Positions 2,492 through 9,324 of a DNA stretch of 15,755 bases are shown one piece after another; within the stretch, counting starts at the first letter, position 1; each line of letters begins with the position of its first letter. The DNA is taken from positions 1 to 15,755 of the forward strand of contig JBMYOQ010000086.1 in NCBI GenBank assembly GCA_049599475.1, read 5' to 3'. This DNA comes from Opitutales bacterium. GTDB taxonomy: Bacteria > Verrucomicrobiota > Verrucomicrobiia > Opitutales > JABSRG01. The notes under the pieces were generated by a model. The model saw nothing but the letters and a program-made list of their open reading frames with translations, did not search any database and was not told the DNA's origin. The position numbers were made by a program, and so were the translations under genes.

Positions 2492-4168
2492 ATGCGAATA
2501 CACTGTTTAGTCATCACTTTTCTATTCTCTACAATATATGCATTCTCAGATTTTCAGATGTATCTTAACCAGTTAGGCTACTATCCGCAGTCTACTAAGA
2601 TTGCGCTCATTCCGAAGACCGAGATTACAGAATTTACCATTTTAAATGAGGATGAGATCGCAGTATATTCAGGAAAATTATCGCTTGCGCAATTCTGGGA
2701 TGATGCGGGAGACCACTACAGCTTAGCTGATTTCTCCAAGTTGACAACGGAGGGCTCCTACCGGCTAAAAGTCGGACGAGAGGTAACACCGCCATTCACG
2801 ATCAACAGAGGTGCCTACTCCGATGTCGCTTTAGCCACCGTAAAAGCACTCTACTTTCAGCGCGCGTCCACCTTACTTGATCCTGAACACGCAGGAAAAT
2901 GGGCCCGCGCTTTTGGGCACCCAGACGACGCTTGCGTCTACCATCCTTCGACAGGAAAAAACGAGGGCACACGATCATCCCCAGGCGGATGGTATGATGC
3001 AGGAGATTACGGAAAATATACCATTCCCCTCGCCTACACCACCTATCGGCTCCTATCGCTTTATGAGCGGTACCCATTCGTCTTTTCCGATGGGACTTTA
3101 AACATACCCGAGTCTGGAAATGGTCGGAATGATTTGCTCGACGAGATGCGGGTCGGGCTCGACTGGTTACACACGATGCAGGATACCGATGGGGCCGCAT
3201 TTCACAAGCTGACCTCTTTGACCTTCGAACCTAAGGACGTGATGCCCCATCAAGCGCGGAAACAGCGGTGGATTATTGGGAAGTCAACTAAGGCTACCCT
3301 AGACTACGCAGCCGCCCTGGCACAAGCTGCCCGTGTCTATCGTGAGATTGATTCTGCCTTTTCCAAAGCGTGTATTCAGCGCGCAGAGCGAGCCTGGGCC
3401 TGGGCAAAGAAGAACCCTCGAGTGCATTACAAAAACCCGGAAGATGTAAGGACTGGAGAATACGGCGGAAGGGCCGGTGCCGACGAGTTTTTCTGGGCAG
3501 CCGTTGAGCTCTTAATCACCACACAGAAGCCAGAATATAGAGAGACCGTCAAAGCTTATGATTCCAAGCTCAACGTGGGTGATGCGGCCGGTTGGAACAA
3601 TGTAAAAATGCATGGCGTCTTTTCTCTTTTACAACATCCGGATGCACTGGATACCGAAGACTGGGAAGAGCTCAAAGATGATTTCCTAAACTATGCCAGG
3701 GAAATCGCACTGCAAATTGATCATAGCCCCGGACGCATCGTATCCTCTCGCTTCGGATGGGGTTCCAATGGCTACAAAGCTTACCGAGGCGTAGCACTTA
3801 TGGAAGCATTTAGGTTATCAGGAAAATCTCAATACATCACCGCGGCCGGAGAGATCGCTGATTACCTACTGGGCAAAAATCCACTCGGCTATTCATTCAT
3901 AAGCGGATTTGGCAGTAATCCGGTAAAGAACATACACCACAGGTTATCCATAGCAGACGGCGTTGAAGACCTCATCCCGGGGCTCGTTTCAGGCGGACCC
4001 AACAAAGGGCAGCAAGACAGAGATGGTGTGGATTATCCAAATTCATTTCCCGCAAAGTCGTTTGTAGACGACACAAATAGCTACGCATCCAACGAAGTTA
4101 CGACCTACTGGAACGCCGAAGCAGCCTATCTCCTTACGGCATTGGAAATAGAACACAGACATCTCTAA
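2492..4168 (+). CDS. Glycoside hydrolase family 9 endoglucanase with N-terminal Ig-like (CelD_N) domain
   Basis: 558 aa with a signal peptide. GH9 catalytic motifs GGWYDAGDYGKY (DAGD), NIHHRLS (HHR) and C-terminal SNEVTTYWNAEAAY (catalytic Glu region). The first ~90 aa are typical of the Cel9 Ig-like fold. Confidence 0.85.
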   Translation: MRIHCLVITFLFSTIYAFSDFQMYLNQLGYYPQSTKIALIPKTEITEFTILNEDEIAVYSGKLSLAQFWDDAGDHYSLADFSKLTTEGSYRLKVGREVTPPFTINRGAYSDVALATVKALYFQRASTLLDPEHAGKWARAFGHPDDACVYHPSTGKNEGTRSSPGGWYDAGDYGKYTIPLAYTTYRLLSLYERYPFVFSDGTLNIPESGNGRNDLLDEMRVGLDWLHTMQDTDGAAFHKLTSLTFEPKDVMPHQARKQRWIIGKSTKATLDYAAALAQAARVYREIDSAFSKACIQRAERAWAWAKKNPRVHYKNPEDVRTGEYGGRAGADEFFWAAVELLITTQKPEYRETVKAYDSKLNVGDAAGWNNVKMHGVFSLLQHPDALDTEDWEELKDDFLNYAREIALQIDHSPGRIVSSRFGWGSNGYKAYRGVALMEAFRLSGKSQYITAAGEIADYLLGKNPLGYSFISGFGSNPVKNIHHRLSIADGVEDLIPGLVSGGPNKGQQDRDGVDYPNSFPAKSFVDDTNSYASNEVTTYWNAEAAYLLTALEIEHRHL

Positions 4169-4202
4169 GCATCCCCCCACCGAACTCTCCACACTCTCGA
4201 TC

Positions 4203-5672
4203 TTGAAAATCTCACTCATCCAACAAAAAGAAGCTGATATTCGCTTGTTCATGTCCGACGGCAGCGAACGTTCAGACTACCTACCTCAAGCGAAAGCTCT
4301 CGACGTGCTCGGCAGCCCACATGCGGGGATTAACTTAATGGCGTGCTACTACCCGAAGCAGGAATTCTGGCCCGAGCGCCGACTGTTCAGCGATGACGTG
4401 CCTCACTACCGGCATGCACCCAAGGATGAAACCGCTTTCACTAAAATGGAATGCCTGAATGAATGGACAGACGGCTACTACAACTTGGATATCAAGGATC
4501 CAAACTGTGCCGTAATCCAGCAAATGGAAGATGTTCGCCGATACGGCCAGGACGTCCGTCTCACGCTCACTGCAGACATGGACACATCTGATGACGATCT
4601 TCGGGCAATCGCTGAGATTCTCAAACCATTCGGAAAGGTCGAACTGCGCCTCAACCATGAAGCAAATGGCAACAACTGGTTTCGCTTCGCGCAAAACGTC
4701 GGCGCATTACAGGGCCAGAAGCAGATAGAGAAGTACTACGCGATCAGCCAATTCTTCCTGCGGGCCAATACCGTTATCCGAGATGTGGCTCCGGAAGTTG
4801 TATTGGTCGGCTGTTACAATGGTCCGGGCGAGCGCACTACCATGGGCGAACTCGCCCCCGGTGAGCTCCCTCATCTCACCTTGGAAGAATTGGGTCTGAT
4901 GTATCAACACCCAGATACGATGGTCTCTCTCGATCAATATGGATCGCTCCACTACGGATGGCCCGGTCACACCATCGGCACCGTCCCCGTTATCGATGGA
5001 GTCAACCATCAAGAACATCAGAGCTTTTCCCTCACCAGCCTCGAACTGTGTGAAACAGTAATCCGCCCTTTCCACACCTTTATCGAAGAGCTGCGCGGGA
5101 AACCAACGCGCATTGACCTCGGAGAATTGGACTTCGACGAAGATATCCACGGTCCAGAGATTCGCGCTCACCTTCTCTACGAGTGCTACAACTGGGTACG
5201 TAAACACCCAGAAATCGTCGGGAGTGTAACCTTCTACGAACTCACCGACATGGGGGGCCTCGGGCTATTTCGCCAGAAGGCCTACGGAAATCTCGACGAG
5301 CTCTCCTCAAACATCGTCACAGACTTCTATAAACGGGTCCTAAAATGGGAAGAATTCGAGCCAAAGGTTGAGACCATAAGGGCCCTTTCCCAGAATGCGG
5401 AAAACATAGAACTGGAGTGGATATCATCTTCAGACGCCACTGGTTTAGAGATCGAATTGGATCCAGAGCAGGCTAAAATCGACTTCCTTGAGTCCACCTG
5501 GAAGCGTATCATATTCATAGATAAATCTGGCACACACTCGTATTTACACACCTCCGCGGAAAAGGTAAACATTCCGCGGGATACGCAATCCGTCCGTATT
5601 TTCGCCCTCCCTGAAGACGGACGAAACAACACCTGCCATTCCTATACCCGGACAATTCCAGTCCCACGTTGA
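4203..5672 (+). CDS. Hypothetical protein, possible clan GH-A (GH26-like) TIM-barrel glycosidase. No signal peptide.
   Basis: 489-aa ORF. VELRLNHEANGNNWF resembles the GH26/GH-A acid-base HE(M/A)NG-W motif. Start uncertain: TTG at 4203 versus ATG at 4251 (MSDGSER...). Sits immediately downstream of the GH9 gene on the same strand. Confidence 0.5.
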   Translation: MKISLIQQKEADIRLFMSDGSERSDYLPQAKALDVLGSPHAGINLMACYYPKQEFWPERRLFSDDVPHYRHAPKDETAFTKMECLNEWTDGYYNLDIKDPNCAVIQQMEDVRRYGQDVRLTLTADMDTSDDDLRAIAEILKPFGKVELRLNHEANGNNWFRFAQNVGALQGQKQIEKYYAISQFFLRANTVIRDVAPEVVLVGCYNGPGERTTMGELAPGELPHLTLEELGLMYQHPDTMVSLDQYGSLHYGWPGHTIGTVPVIDGVNHQEHQSFSLTSLELCETVIRPFHTFIEELRGKPTRIDLGELDFDEDIHGPEIRAHLLYECYNWVRKHPEIVGSVTFYELTDMGGLGLFRQKAYGNLDELSSNIVTDFYKRVLKWEEFEPKVETIRALSQNAENIELEWISSSDATGLEIELDPEQAKIDFLESTWKRIIFIDKSGTHSYLHTSAEKVNIPRDTQSVRIFALPEDGRNNTCHSYTRTIPVPR

Positions 5673-5824
5673 ATCTAGAGCGCCCTCCTCCCAATTGGCC
5701 GCTCTGGTATTGTGTTGCAAATCAAGACCATCTCGGACGAGTCTTATTGGTTTTTGAGCACACTGCGGACTTCCCCTGCAAGCTATGACATACCGTAGGT
5801 TGAAGGATACGCAGGTGAGGACAC

Positions 5825-6916
5825 ATGCCAACAACCGCTTCCAGTTCAGCCAAGCAAGTTACTCATCGCCGATCAGCTCTGCGTAGATTGGTGATCGTGG
5901 TCCTTCTGATTCTGCTTCCGATGAGCGCTATGGCGGCCTTACTCGTCGGCCCGATGGAGATGAAGCTGGTCGACGTGCTCAAAATACTCGCCAACGGCAT
6001 TCTGGGTAGCGAAGCGGATTCTCCCGGCGGAGCACACATAGTCATCTGGGAGATCCGACTCCCGCGAGTCCTGCTCTCGGTGTTAATCGGGTGCGGCCTT
6101 GCCGTCGCAGGAGCCTCCATGCAAGGCGTGTTTCGCAACCCATTGGCAGACCCCGGTATAATCGGCGTCTCAGGAGGCGGCGCAATGGGCGCCATCGCAA
6201 TGATCGTTCTGGGTAATCGCATTTTCCCTCAAGTCTTCTTCGACAACTACGGGATCTACATCGTCCCCGCAGCAGCGATGCTCGGCGCAATAGCCATCAC
6301 CTTTCTGATCTACAGGTTATCGCTGCAAAACGGGAGCGTGAATCTTATCGCGATGCTCTTAATAGGGATCGCCATTAATGCTCTAGGAGGTTCCTTCATA
6401 GGTTTTTTGACCTTCATCTCGAACGACGAGGAACTACGCACACTCACCTTCTGGAATCTCGGCTCTCTGGGTCGGGCCACCTGGAGTCTGATTATTCCGG
6501 CATTCGTTTTTATGGTGTTACCCTTGTTTCTAATTCCCCACTACGCCACAGCTTTAAACGCCCTTCTGCTGGGTGAATCCGAGGCACGGTATCTAGGGTT
6601 GAATACCGCTCGCGTAAAACGCAATATCATCATCCTTTCGGCATCGTTAGTCGGCGTCTCAGTGGCTCTCTGCGGCGGAATCGGCTTCATTGCCCTCGTG
6701 GCCCCGCACATGGTGCGCTCCATGTGCGGCCCAGATCATCGCATCCTGATTCCGGCGAGTGGATTGCTCGGAGCAATCATCCTCACCTTGGGCGATATTG
6801 GCGCACGCACCCTCGCTGCGCCGGCGGAGCTACCGATCGGCATTCTTACAGCATTAATCGGAGCACCGGTATTCCTTTACATTCTTATTCAGTGGAAGCG
6901 TTCCTCCGCTCATTAA
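5825..6916 (+). CDS. hmuU: FecCD-family iron-chelate/haem ABC transporter permease (HmuU-like)
   Basis: 363 aa, polytopic membrane protein. Typical BtuC/FecCD motifs: RLPRVLLSVLIGCGLAVAGASMQGVFRNPLADPGIIGVSGG, ARYLGLN, LIGAPVFLYIL. Confidence 0.85.
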   Translation: MPTTASSSAKQVTHRRSALRRLVIVVLLILLPMSAMAALLVGPMEMKLVDVLKILANGILGSEADSPGGAHIVIWEIRLPRVLLSVLIGCGLAVAGASMQGVFRNPLADPGIIGVSGGGAMGAIAMIVLGNRIFPQVFFDNYGIYIVPAAAMLGAIAITFLIYRLSLQNGSVNLIAMLLIGIAINALGGSFIGFLTFISNDEELRTLTFWNLGSLGRATWSLIIPAFVFMVLPLFLIPHYATALNALLLGESEARYLGLNTARVKRNIIILSASLVGVSVALCGGIGFIALVAPHMVRSMCGPDHRILIPASGLLGAIILTLGDIGARTLAAPAELPIGILTALIGAPVFLYILIQWKRSSAH

Positions 6917-7771: not shown

Positions 7772-8321
7772 CGACTCTTCCGATACGAACGAACCCTCGC
7801 CCCCCGATACCGACCCCACTGTCCAATCAGGACTCGCGGAACTCTTTGAGACCACAAAGACCGCAAACCTAGGCAGCGTCAGTGCACAGGGAATCCCATC
7901 TGCGAGCTACGCCCCCTACATTATGGATGAGGCGGGGAACTTTTACATCTATATCAGCGCGCTGGCAAAGCACACCGCCAACATCAAACGCTCTCTCAAG
8001 ACTAGTTTCATGCTCATCGAAGATGAAGCGCAAGCGAGCAGCTTATTCGCACGTAAGCGAGTGACATGGGATTGTGAAGTCGAGCCTATTGAACGGGATG
8101 GTGAGGAGTTTAATGTACGCATCTCCGATTTCGAAGAGACTTTCGGCGACATCATGAATACCCTCGCAAATATGACAGACTTCAGTCTTTTCCGGTTAAA
8201 GCCTTGCAATGGCGTGCTCGTCCTGGGCTTTGGCCAAGCCTTTCGTTTATCGGGACACGAGATTAATCAGCACCTTCAGGGACGCCACAGCAGCGGTCAC
8301 AAGATAAAGAAATCGAGCTGA
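7764..8321 (+). CDS. HutZ/HugZ-like haem-utilisation split-barrel (PNPOx-like) protein
   Basis: 185 aa. Its start overlaps the hmuV stop by 8 nt (translational coupling). Pyridoxamine-5'-phosphate-oxidase-like split-barrel signature (SVSAQGIPSASYAPYIMDEAGNFYIYIS...) in a haem ABC importer context. Confidence 0.6.
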   Translation: MSNDSSDTNEPSPPDTDPTVQSGLAELFETTKTANLGSVSAQGIPSASYAPYIMDEAGNFYIYISALAKHTANIKRSLKTSFMLIEDEAQASSLFARKRVTWDCEVEPIERDGEEFNVRISDFEETFGDIMNTLANMTDFSLFRLKPCNGVLVLGFGQAFRLSGHEINQHLQGRHSSGHKIKKSS

Positions 8322-8324
8322 TGC

Positions 8325-8356
8325 ATTATAATATCAACGTAAAATGATATTATAAT
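8325..8356. promoter_or_regulatory. Perfect 12-bp AT-rich inverted repeat (attataatatca-N8-tgatattataat). Each arm holds a consensus TATAAT. Loose Fur-box resemblance.
   Basis: Seen directly. The palindrome lies 4 bp after the hutZ-like stop. aatgatattataatat matches about 13/16 of the Fur-box half aatgataatcattatc. Two TATAAT hexamers at 8327-8332 and 8351-8356. Confidence 0.35.
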
Positions 8357-8466
8357 ATTTGTATGCTCGGAATTATCACTTGACCCTTCACAGCCTTTAA
8401 TAGATTCCACATCTGAACCTTTTTCAAAATGCTTCACTTAAAACAGAATAGAGGAACGCAAATAGA

Positions 8467-8565
8467 ATGCCGTCGGAGTCAATATCCGAGGGATATCTTT
8501 GCATCCACATGTCTGGTACTCAAAGTGTCGAGCAATCATTTTCCCCGCGAGTTGGGATAAAATAA
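8467..8565 (+). CDS. Possible 32-aa small ORF (MPSESISEGYLCIHMSGTQSVEQSFSPRVGIK) inside the candidate sRNA/leader transcript
   Basis: ATG preceded by GAGGA 11 nt upstream. Ends 25 nt before the terminator at 8593. No homology known to me. Confidence 0.15.
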   Translation: MPSESISEGYLCIHMSGTQSVEQSFSPRVGIK

Positions 8566-8592
8566 TTGGAAATTAAGTACACTTCATATTTG

Positions 8593-8627
8593 AGCCCGGA
8601 CTGTAAAATACATCCGGGCTTTTTTGT
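8593..8627 (+). terminator. Rho-independent terminator (agcccgga-N12-tccgggct + T7)
   Basis: GC-rich 8-bp stem followed by TTTTTTG. Lies about 270 nt downstream of the hutZ-like stop, so it delimits a non-coding or small-ORF transcript. Confidence 0.7.
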
Positions 8628-8980
8628 GCTCATTTATAGAACATTGGCATTTCAACACTGAAATCCTGCGTTTATGCGGAGCTTAAAAACATCTAAAAAA
8701 CATTCATAAACACTTAACTTGCAACAATTTGTGAATTTTAAATATTGACTTCAACATTTTCCTACCCAGCATCATTCGTATCAACAAAAACAGACAATGC
8801 AGTTAGGCACACAGCAGATACAAATAGAAAACAACCAAGGGCACAGCGATCCCCTGAGCAGAGCCTCATATGGAACGCGGCCTCATGGATATGGGCTTAG
8901 AATCAGCACTTGTTTCAAATGCACCGACGCAATCGTCAATATCGACTGAATCAGACGATGAAACAAAAACGCTTTTTTCT

Positions 8981-9015
8981 AGCCCGGGCAGCCAATCATG
9001 CGCCTGGGCTTTTTA
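8981..9015 (+). terminator. Terminator-like hairpin (agcccgggc-N12-gcctgggct + TTTTT), preceded by an A-tract and so possibly bidirectional
   Basis: 9-bp stem with one G-U pair and a downstream T-run. aaaaacgctttttt lies just upstream. Confidence 0.5.
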
Positions 9016-9324
9016 GTTTCTACCGCAGCCAGTTTATCGGTAATCCCTTCCACCAGAAGCGAAGGGTCAAACGTCACGTAATCGGCGTCCAAACCATGAA
9101 TACACATTCATGAGAGGGGCGAAACAGCTCCTTGGTAGAAACAAAGCATTTGTATCGCTGATTCAGAATTTGTATTCAAAGACATATAGGTCCGATTTCG
9201 GAGTGTTTGCATATCCCAAGCACTTGAAATAGGAAACGTAATAAACTTTCGGTCGGCAGTGCGAGCGCCTCTGGCTTCCAGTCAGGCTATCGTATTCTGT
9301 TCGGCATTCTAAACGAAAAACCAC

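Follow-up and report, generated by a model that had tools for sequence, protein, structure and literature searches.

A band-7-associated tRNA (hereafter b7a-tRNA)/Band-7/RtcB RNA-repair system was predicted by Burroughs and Aravind in 2016, as related in bioRxiv 10.1101/312249, and in the outline given there a Band-7/SPFH protein, a tRNA-like gene directly upstream of it and RtcB share one cluster. In Anabaena, rtcB is linked to and co-regulated with tRNA arrays that stay silent until translational stress sets in, and L-arrays have been reported in Verrucomicrobia and Planctomycetes (PMC8421152). The rsr-yrlBA-rtcBA locus of Salmonella places structured non-coding RNAs (Y RNAs), one of them tRNA-like, beside RtcB, and these RNAs have been proposed as repair cofactors (bioRxiv 10.1101/312249). 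The locus studied here lies in a 15,755-bp contig of an Opitutales (Verrucomicrobiota) metagenome-assembled genome (MAG), referred to below as the window; the loci compared with it carry L-numbers. Our subject is the non-coding island at 8322-9320, upstream of a tRNA-like/slipin/RtcB gene cluster.

On its 5′ side the island adjoins genes for a FecCD permease, an ABC ATPase and a HutZ-like protein, the last with its stop codon at 8319-8321. On its 3′ side follow, in order, three tRNA-like genes, a slipin/Band-7 gene, a gene for a 260-aa protein, the RtcB gene and a gene for a GYF_2 protein. We propose that the island is the conserved non-coding 5′ region of the tRNA-like/slipin/RtcB module and that it includes a terminator-gated leader, a combined statement to which we assign a probability of about 0.6. 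It is based on conservation, colinearity, covariation, strand, RNA structure and membership of the gene cluster.

Colinearity with the upstream region of slipin genes

A sequence-only reading of the window had described the island as AT-rich against a genome of about 50% G+C and as lacking any credible long open reading frame (ORF). Both descriptions hold: the G+C content is 41.0% for 8322-9320 and 36.9% for 8322-8627, against 50% for the window, and the longest ORF within 8322-9320 on either strand has 67 aa, with no Pfam match at E ≤ 1 among the 10 longest.

Since no close HutZ relative was found in the GTDB species set, relatives of the locus were reached through the slipin gene instead. 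The nearest slipin homologues belong to Puniceicoccus vermicola, whose locus is L002, and to several Puniceicoccaceae/Opitutales MAGs (63-85% identity), and in all of these related genomes 1-3 kb without genes precede slipin. Analyses by BLAST and MAFFT showed that window positions 8333-9146 and 9245-10100 match, in colinear order, the DNA that precedes slipin in L002, L003, L005, L087, L089, L091 and L008, and the order and orientation of the island are kept upstream of slipin in related Puniceicoccales genomes. Beyond the island the genes vary by genome (a vWA-linked giant protein, peptidase S9, HpiC1-like, UvrA-like and ribosomal protein genes, EF-P), and no haem or iron genes lie beside the homologous units in L002, L003, L005, L089 and L091. 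The left limit of conservation is sharp, at about 12 nt or less from the stop codon of hutZ, and the flanking sequence varies from one genome to the next. Colinearity upstream of slipin, taken together with the unrelated 5′ neighbours, makes the adjacency to hutZ incidental. On the evidence of gene order, the functional partner of the island is the downstream tRNA-like/slipin/RtcB cluster and not the haem-uptake operon, and we regard it as very probable that the island belongs to the slipin/RtcB module.

The BLAST colinearity breaks at a non-conserved spacer (9147-9247, + strand), which is the site of the tRNA array of the relatives. Between the homologues of positions 9146 and 9245 these carry 3-14 tRNA genes, and the window and L006 are without an array. 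The arrays lie at 8806-9287 in L002, 7737-8691 in L003, 8538-9262 in L005, 7852-9059 in L091 and 4207-5222 in L093. In Puniceicoccales they consist mostly of Asn, Phe, Leu-CAG, Lys, Met, Glu, Gln, Arg-ACG, His and Asp tRNA genes, and we take the enriched types to be those classically attacked by anticodon nucleases (such as colicins E5 and D, PrrC and VapC); a role as backup or decoy tRNAs beside RtcB would fit. To the right of the spacer, conserved block B (CGGUCGGCGGC ... UUCUAAACGGAAA; 9248-9324, + strand) is present in a nine-genome alignment, with a BLAST identity of 81-85%, and abuts the tRNA-like genes.

R1 and the terminator-bounded units

The most conserved element of the island is R1, a 131-nt structured RNA motif at 9016-9146 (+ strand) defined by a covariance model, covariation and fold energy. 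Its closing stem P1 (GUUUCUACC/GGUAGAAAC in the window, GUUUCCACC/GGUGGAAAC or AUUUAAA/UAUAAAU elsewhere) surrounds a hairpin P2, an invariant helix P3 and a length-variable hairpin P4, and the core AAACGUC..GUAAnnGGCGUCCAAACC..GAGAGGGGCGAAAC is invariant. The covariance model was built from eight sequences and then matched L006 and L007; as a test, it was applied to three Puniceicoccales loci fetched afterwards (L093, L095 and L096) and found R1 in all of them. The matches score 72-147 bits at 13/13 Puniceicoccales slipin loci and fall on the + strand only. Over the 13 sequences, 91.3% of cells are paired, as opposed to 38-44% in slid controls, and changes on both sides occur at 13 pairs and in 37 cells, a result reached by none of 500 shuffles; the motif folds with an energy of −45.9 kcal/mol (z −5.7). 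In 11 of the 13 genomes P3 retains a U-G pair, and the conserved G-U pairs together with the strand-limited matches of the model imply that R1 is an RNA read from the + strand. It lies 9-434 nt before the first tRNA or tRNA-like gene, the distance being 9-13 nt in L003 and L089.

The variation within R1 is not that of a protein gene: indels are of 1-2 nt or of variable length and not multiples of three, several frames are open together, and the invariant 31-nt core has no third-position pattern. A 65-aa gene called over R1 in L003 was rejected as spurious, the frames changing and the indels being non-triplet. R1 has no Rfam 15 match at E ≤ 10, and over the whole island the same threshold gave only sub-threshold, terminator-driven matches (trpB motif, tmRNA fragment, anti-hemB and others), which were rejected. 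Nor did the R1 model match any of ~75 slipin loci outside Puniceicoccales (Planctomycetota, Desulfobacterales and others), so that R1 appears either restricted to Puniceicoccales or too diverged to be detected elsewhere. An exact scan of viral contigs with the core pattern AACGTCNNNTAANNGGCGTCCAANCC found none; the sole metagenome match to that pattern (JGI; L092) was dismissed as chance, having no covariance-model match and no tRNAs. As far as comparative sequence analysis can establish it, the identification of R1 as a new structured RNA, not in Rfam 15, is well supported.

Directly 5′ of R1 lies the intrinsic terminator T2 (8981-9019, + strand), with its hairpin at 8981-9010 and a U-run to 9014/9019. 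Its energy of −19.1 kcal/mol (z −3.6) was matched by none of 200 shuffles. In 10 genomes, 96.4% of its cells are paired, versus 10-52% in slid controls, and both partners vary at four pairs (GCCCGGGC/GCCTGGGC, GCCCAAGC/GCTTGGGC, GCCCGAGT/ACTCGGGC); T2 was found also in L095 and L096. Between T2 and R1 there is neither a conserved promoter motif nor room for one. Upstream, the terminator T1 (8592-8627, + strand) has its hairpin at 8592-8621 and a U-run to 8625/8627, with an energy of −18.5 kcal/mol (z −5.0), likewise matched by 0/200 shuffles. It is kept in L002, L003, L005, L089, L091 and L006, as seen by alignment or nhmmer, which makes seven genomes with the window; a T1-like hairpin with a T-run occurs also in L007 and L008, and the upper stem of T1 covaries. 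The T-runs of both terminators stand on the + strand only. A simple terminator scan missed both of them, their loops exceeding its 8-nt limit. The sequence-only reading had recognized them as a clean intrinsic terminator at 8593-8627 and a second terminator-like hairpin at 8981-9015, and both are conserved with compensatory changes. T1 is the first terminator past hutZ and probably also ends read-through from that gene, insulating the module from upstream transcription.

The two terminators close two units. Unit 2, which ends at T2, is preceded by a small hairpin with GCGGAGC (8664-8684, the motif at 8676-8682, + strand) that lies between T1 and the second of two TTGAC boxes; GCGGAGC is invariant in six genomes, and GGGCGGAGC is present also in L006, L007 and L095. 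Next comes an AT-rich tract (8706-8750, + strand) that ends in TTGACT (8745-8750), a −35-like box of a putative promoter, here called promoter P2. In 12 of 13 genomes TTGACA or TTGACT stands 271-307 nt before the start of R1, L093 having it at −192, and an AT-rich tract precedes the box in all genomes inspected. The body of unit 2 (8781-8980, + strand) would, together with T2, make up a non-coding leader RNA of ~235 nt, the 5′ end of which is placed from the TTGAC box. The body gave nhmmer matches with E from 1e-41 to 1e-85 in seven genomes, and across genomes it has no consistent ORF. Within it, a hairpin formed by GUUUCA (8912-8917) and UGAAAC (8959-8964) is 91% paired, with three of its six pairs changing on both sides, and a conserved GAUGAAA is accounted for as the 3′ strand of this hairpin. 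GGGCTT (8893-8898) is invariant; as RNA it shows, by eye only, a 5-6-nt match to the 5′ arm of T2, for which no conserved alternative structure was established.

Unit 1 ends at T1. Its −35-like box, TTGACC (8380-8385, + strand), contains a TTGAC invariant in six genomes, and TTGACA is found at −630 to −676 from R1 in L002, L003, L005, L089, L091 and L007. A canonical −10 hexamer is absent after TTGACC; 17 nt on, GATTCC, GAGAAA, GATCAA and similar sequences occur. Unit 1 includes a small ORF of 43 codons with an invariant ATG (8429-8560, + strand), the coding status of which is ambiguous. An ORF of 40-45 codons is open in six of six genomes, with invariant N, E, P, G, C and S residues, an in-frame 9-nt indel in L003 and synonymous variation at P and G codons. 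Its differences by codon position (143/183/206) are not concentrated at the third position, which speaks against coding. In the window, moreover, a 1-nt deletion at 8487-8492 (CCGA-GGGA versus CCGAAGGGA in five related genomes) shifts the frame. A Logan contig from the same sample is identical across the island, this deletion included; the deletion may be genuine or may stem from the assembly. No gene caller predicted the ORF, and a search with the micro-ORF alignment found no homologue among 5.8 billion proteins. The 32-aa ORF pointed out by the sequence-only reading exists (8467-8565), as does its supposed ribosome-binding site, GAGGA at 8451-8455, 11 nt before the ATG. Neither the GAGGA nor this start codon is conserved, and the frame is that of the C-terminal half of the 40-45-codon ORF of the relatives.

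At the left edge, an AT-rich motif, ATCAAnnTAnAnnGATAnnnTAATAT (8333-8358, + strand), aligns in the window, L002, L003, L089 and L091 and weakly in L005; it is possibly a regulator site or a −10-like element. It includes the perfect 12-bp palindrome ATATTATAATAT (8347-8358) and the second of two TATAAT hexamers (8351-8356). That palindrome had been placed 4 bp after the hutZ-like stop; it is real, though 26 bp past the stop, and the position 4 bp past it is taken by just an 8-bp palindrome, ATTATAAT (8325-8332). One such palindrome is not rare, 0.29 perfect 12-bp ones being expected per shuffle of the AT-rich kilobase. The twin TATAAT boxes are both present, at 8327 and 8351, two of the five such sites in the window, and only the second falls within the conserved motif: in the alignment the first is window-specific and the palindrome is imperfect in relatives.

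A proposed terminator-gated leader and its alternatives

The description of the region as a non-coding island with terminator-bounded units is upheld by the conservation of those units in related genomes, and an RNA-level function for them is plausible from their comparative features. Taking into account that the second TTGAC box is the only conserved promoter-like element 5′ of R1 and the tRNAs, promoter P2 serves as the module promoter in the simplest model. It would drive the structured ~235-nt leader, and most of this transcription would end at T2, with a short leader RNA as its product. When T2 is conditionally read through, R1, the tRNA or tRNA-like genes and slipin-RtcB would be expressed, and T1 would shield the module from upstream transcription at whatever place it occupies in a genome. 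R1 might act as a processing or antitermination element of the long, untranslated and hairpin-rich read-through transcript; alternatively, it could be a stable RNA freed by an RNase P cut at the first tRNA, or a Y-RNA-like partner of repair proteins. The gating mechanism taken alone, in which promoter use, termination, read-through and the controlling signal are all inferred, falls a little short of even odds.

Several observations weigh against it. A canonical −10 hexamer was not found after either TTGAC box, and a consensus sigma-70 scan of the region gave no + strand promoter. The leader sequence is far less conserved than R1, nhmmer having missed it in the distant L007 and L008, which argues against a conserved ligand sensor, and T2 is atypical in L093. 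Being downstream of T2, R1 cannot decide termination there in cis in the same round of transcription. Finally, both units are equipped with a separate TTGAC box and a separate terminator, an arrangement that suits two separate genes as well.

On this last arrangement rests a rather unlikely reading in which units 1 and 2 are independent, co-travelling small genes, one for a 40-45-aa microprotein and one for a trans-acting small RNA (sRNA), T2 is a plain terminator, and R1 and the tRNAs are transcribed from an unrecognised promoter. The ORF of unit 1, open from its invariant ATG in all six genomes with its in-frame indel and synonymous P and G changes, would agree with a microprotein, and unit 2 ends in two stem-loops, as many sRNAs do. 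Such a promoter would have to lie between T2 and R1 or the first tRNA, where no conserved promoter-like motif exists and where the gap from R1 to the tRNA shrinks to the few nucleotides noted for L003 and L089; the microprotein is contradicted by the codon-position counts, the frameshift in the window and the lack of a protein homologue; and the antisense complementarity of units 1 and 2 to the rest of the module amounts to chance-level 9-10-mers, none of them conserved. A translation-sensing attenuator is more doubtful again. Here a leader ORF would start at the ATG at 8958, ~23 nt before T2, and run into the 5′ arm of T2, so that ribosomes stalled at Lys, Gln, Asn, Phe, Tyr and Leu codons would mask T2 when the matching tRNAs are cleaved or scarce, turning on the backup tRNAs and RtcB. 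In 8 of 10 genomes an ATG 20-25 nt before T2 does begin an ORF that runs into T2, an in-frame 3-nt indel lies between ATG and T2 in L003 and L087, L006 and L007 have Shine-Dalgarno-like GGAG and AAGGA before the ATG, and the first eight codons largely fit, by eye, the amino-acid set of the downstream arrays. Yet the AUGAAAC at this start is the 3′ strand of the covarying leader hairpin, which explains its conservation and would sequester the start; the clade of the window has no Shine-Dalgarno sequence; and the short distance from the ATG to T2 would hardly leave a ribosome time to load before termination. The ORF passes T2 and R1 in genome-dependent frames, several of which are open together, and its openness looks like a by-product of composition.

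The two remaining explanations start from the left edge of the island. It is very unlikely that the region is a decayed gene remnant, the outcome that the sequence-only reading had itself named as a refutation, or the end of a mobile element (a recombination site or inverted repeat) without RNA function. The sharp left boundary, ~12 nt from unrelated flanking genes in several genomes, suggests that the module moves or is rearranged as a unit, and an AT-rich palindrome sits at the edge. Against this, there is no Pfam-matching ORF and no consistent frame, the indels are non-triplet, and the compensatory changes, conserved G-U pairs and strand-specific T-runs denote selection on RNA; no integrase or transposase genes were found in the window (Pfam), BLAST of the island gave no match in plasmid records, and the R1 core is absent from viral contigs. 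Scarcely credible, finally, is the Fur-type iron riboregulator favoured by the sequence-only reading, a Fur-repressed, iron-responsive sRNA like PrrF or RyhB that would start at the palindrome and TATAAT, end at 8627 and be linked in function to the haem operon. The island does adjoin genes for a HutZ-like protein and a haem-type ABC transporter, the AT-rich palindrome carries TATAAT, and the terminator at 8592-8627 is genuine. The loose likeness to a Fur box did not survive a consensus scan: the best match to GATAATGATAATCATTATC in 8300-9320 is 11/19, whereas shuffles reach at least 12 in 80% of trials, with a modal best of 12. No Rfam 15 family, the iron sRNAs included, matched at gathering thresholds, and those matches that appear at E ≤ 10 are chance, terminator-driven ones. 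The unit is conserved in five other genomes, none with haem genes adjoining, and neither the perfect palindrome nor the first TATAAT is conserved. The neighbourhood in one genome can mislead, and the attractive annotation of an iron sRNA next to haem genes would here be wrong.

Within the terminator-gated leader that we prefer, a more specific proposal is that leader, T2 and R1 form an undescribed RNA switch that senses tRNA damage or shortage and opens the backup or decoy tRNAs and slipin-RtcB. The signal could be ribosome stalling on Lys/Gln/Asn/Phe/Tyr-rich codons before T2, or a cleaved or uncharged tRNA bound by the leader or by R1. We consider this proposal unlikely in its full form. If true, it would mean an RtcR-independent riboregulation of RNA repair and of defence against anticodon nucleases.

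The downstream module and known systems

The three abutting tRNA-like genes of the window (9325-9545, + strand) were found by ARAGORN and score 47-55 bits with the Rfam tRNA model; they correspond to band-7-associated tRNAs. Their anticodon loops are a 6-nt loop, ATT and ATG. The bodies of these genes are conserved, that of the middle gene being nearly invariant over nine genomes, and the anticodon is hypervariable: the middle gene reads ATT, ACG, GAA, GAT, CAT, ATT, GTAA, CTG and GAA in the nine. Such hypervariable anticodons would fit decoys or sensors for anticodon nucleases. Triplets of tRNA-like genes also occur at 9375-9601 in L002, 9328-9550 in L003, 9350-9576 in L005, 2205-2431 in L087, 3422-3641 in L089 and 9310-9538 in L091. 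Of 80 slipin loci (L006-L085) from Planctomycetota, Verrucomicrobiota and Desulfobacterales, the majority are preceded within 3.5 kb by tRNA genes on the + strand, often in large arrays of up to 40 genes (L016, Planctomycetota). Across slipin loci the last tRNA-like gene, often with an odd anticodon, stands ~450-700 nt before slipin. The Planctomycetota loci typically end in Arg-GCG, Cys-GCA and one tRNA-like gene whose anticodon is variable or abnormal (ATG, ATC, TTA, 2- or 4-nt anticodons).

In the window, ~400 nt (9546-9942) separate the last tRNA-like gene from the slipin ATG. This segment is non-coding in relatives, with conserved islands at CACCACCUGCGG..UGCGGAUACCGG, CCUCAAGCA..CCCCGUGG and CUGCGGGCACCUCUUUU, and Planctomycetota loci keep a gap of 450-700 nt at the equivalent position; it may hold a further structured RNA or a long regulatory 5′ untranslated region. 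The slipin (SPFH/Band-7) gene itself (9943-11058, + strand) matches Pfam Band_7 (PF01145, 2.2e-33). The slipins of relatives have 371 aa, are 83-85% identical and align at the start region, and the product of 9784-11058 shows 100% identity to an NCBI entry, 'slipin family protein [Opitutales bacterium]'. From these alignments the true start is likely the ATG at 9943 (371 aa), rather than the TTG at 9715 (447 aa) or the 424-aa start of NCBI.

The RtcB RNA ligase gene (12052-13449, + strand; Pfam RtcB, 1.2e-88) encodes a protein that shares 74% identity with the RtcB found after slipin in L091. The order slipin-then-RtcB is found also in L003, L086 and L091, and no RtcB stands beside slipin in L002, L005, L087 and L089. 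The 260-aa protein encoded between slipin and RtcB (11121-11903) has no Pfam, NCBIfam or PADLOC match and is unrelated to the 328-334-aa protein that relatives carry there, and the slot looks like a variable 'cargo' position of the module. PADLOC gave no match for slipin, the 260-aa protein, RtcB or the GYF protein. The last of these, a GYF_2-domain protein, is encoded 3′ of RtcB at 13852-14985, and L086 has Fic-like and HipA_C genes, of toxin-antitoxin-like kind, at 3820-6068; the 3′ neighbourhood of the module looks like a hotspot of conflict systems. At the other end of the window, a 489-aa protein (4203-5672) encoded between a GH9 cellulase gene and the FecCD/ABC/HutZ-like genes has no Pfam or NCBIfam match and may be a part of the haem-type transporter that has escaped recognition, either its receptor or its substrate-binding component.

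What is known of the b7a-tRNA/Band-7/RtcB system and of the tRNA arrays of bacteria comes only from comparative genomics and a single study in a cyanobacterium. The island supplies them with cis elements that can be tested, namely a promoter-like box at a fixed distance, a conserved terminator gate and a 131-nt RNA supported by covariation, and these bear on how an RNA-repair system is switched on outside bacteria that contain RtcR. Puniceicoccus vermicola is cultured, which makes transcript mapping and stress experiments feasible.

Judged by sequence, the cluster of the window matches the b7a-tRNA/Band-7/RtcB system, a Band-7 protein, a tRNA-like gene upstream, RtcB and the linkage to the island all being found. 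As that system is outlined in bioRxiv 10.1101/312249, it covers the protein and the tRNA-like RNA, and that outline does not extend to an upstream leader, to terminators or to an R1-like RNA. With the arrays of Anabaena the relatives of the window share the presence of arrays, which they carry between R1 and the tRNA-like genes. The window itself, with just three tRNA-like genes, has no L-array. The regulation differs as well: in Anabaena it depends on 9-nt direct repeats over the −10 box and the transcription start, and no leader made of a terminator and a structured RNA is described there (PMC8421152). As to the Salmonella rsr-yrlBA-rtcBA locus, the long closing stem and multi-helix body of R1 could play a Y-RNA-like role, whereas the window contains neither a Ro60/TROVE gene nor RtcR or a sigma-54 regulator. 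The YrlA model of Rfam gave a weak 21-bit match on a tRNA-like gene and none on R1.

In leaders based on terminators, such as riboswitches and attenuators, a promoter is followed by a structured leader, an intrinsic terminator and an operon, and in processive antitermination RNAs, such as put of HK022 and EAR, a structured RNA heads a long transcription unit. The island resembles both in the order of its elements, R1 heading an untranslated, hairpin-rich unit. It departs from them in that its most conserved element, R1, stands after the terminator and not before it, and it has no sequence or Rfam likeness to a known class. The sRNAs PrrF/PrrH of Pseudomonas and RyhB have in common with the island a short, terminator-bounded unit beside haem-uptake genes and are set apart from it by a Fur box, homology and conserved linkage to iron genes, all of which are missing here. 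The leader architecture (T1, TTGAC box, leader and T2) and R1 are not described in Rfam 15 or in the papers searched. The gene system and the tRNA arrays are of kinds already known, and it is the leader architecture and R1 that are new.

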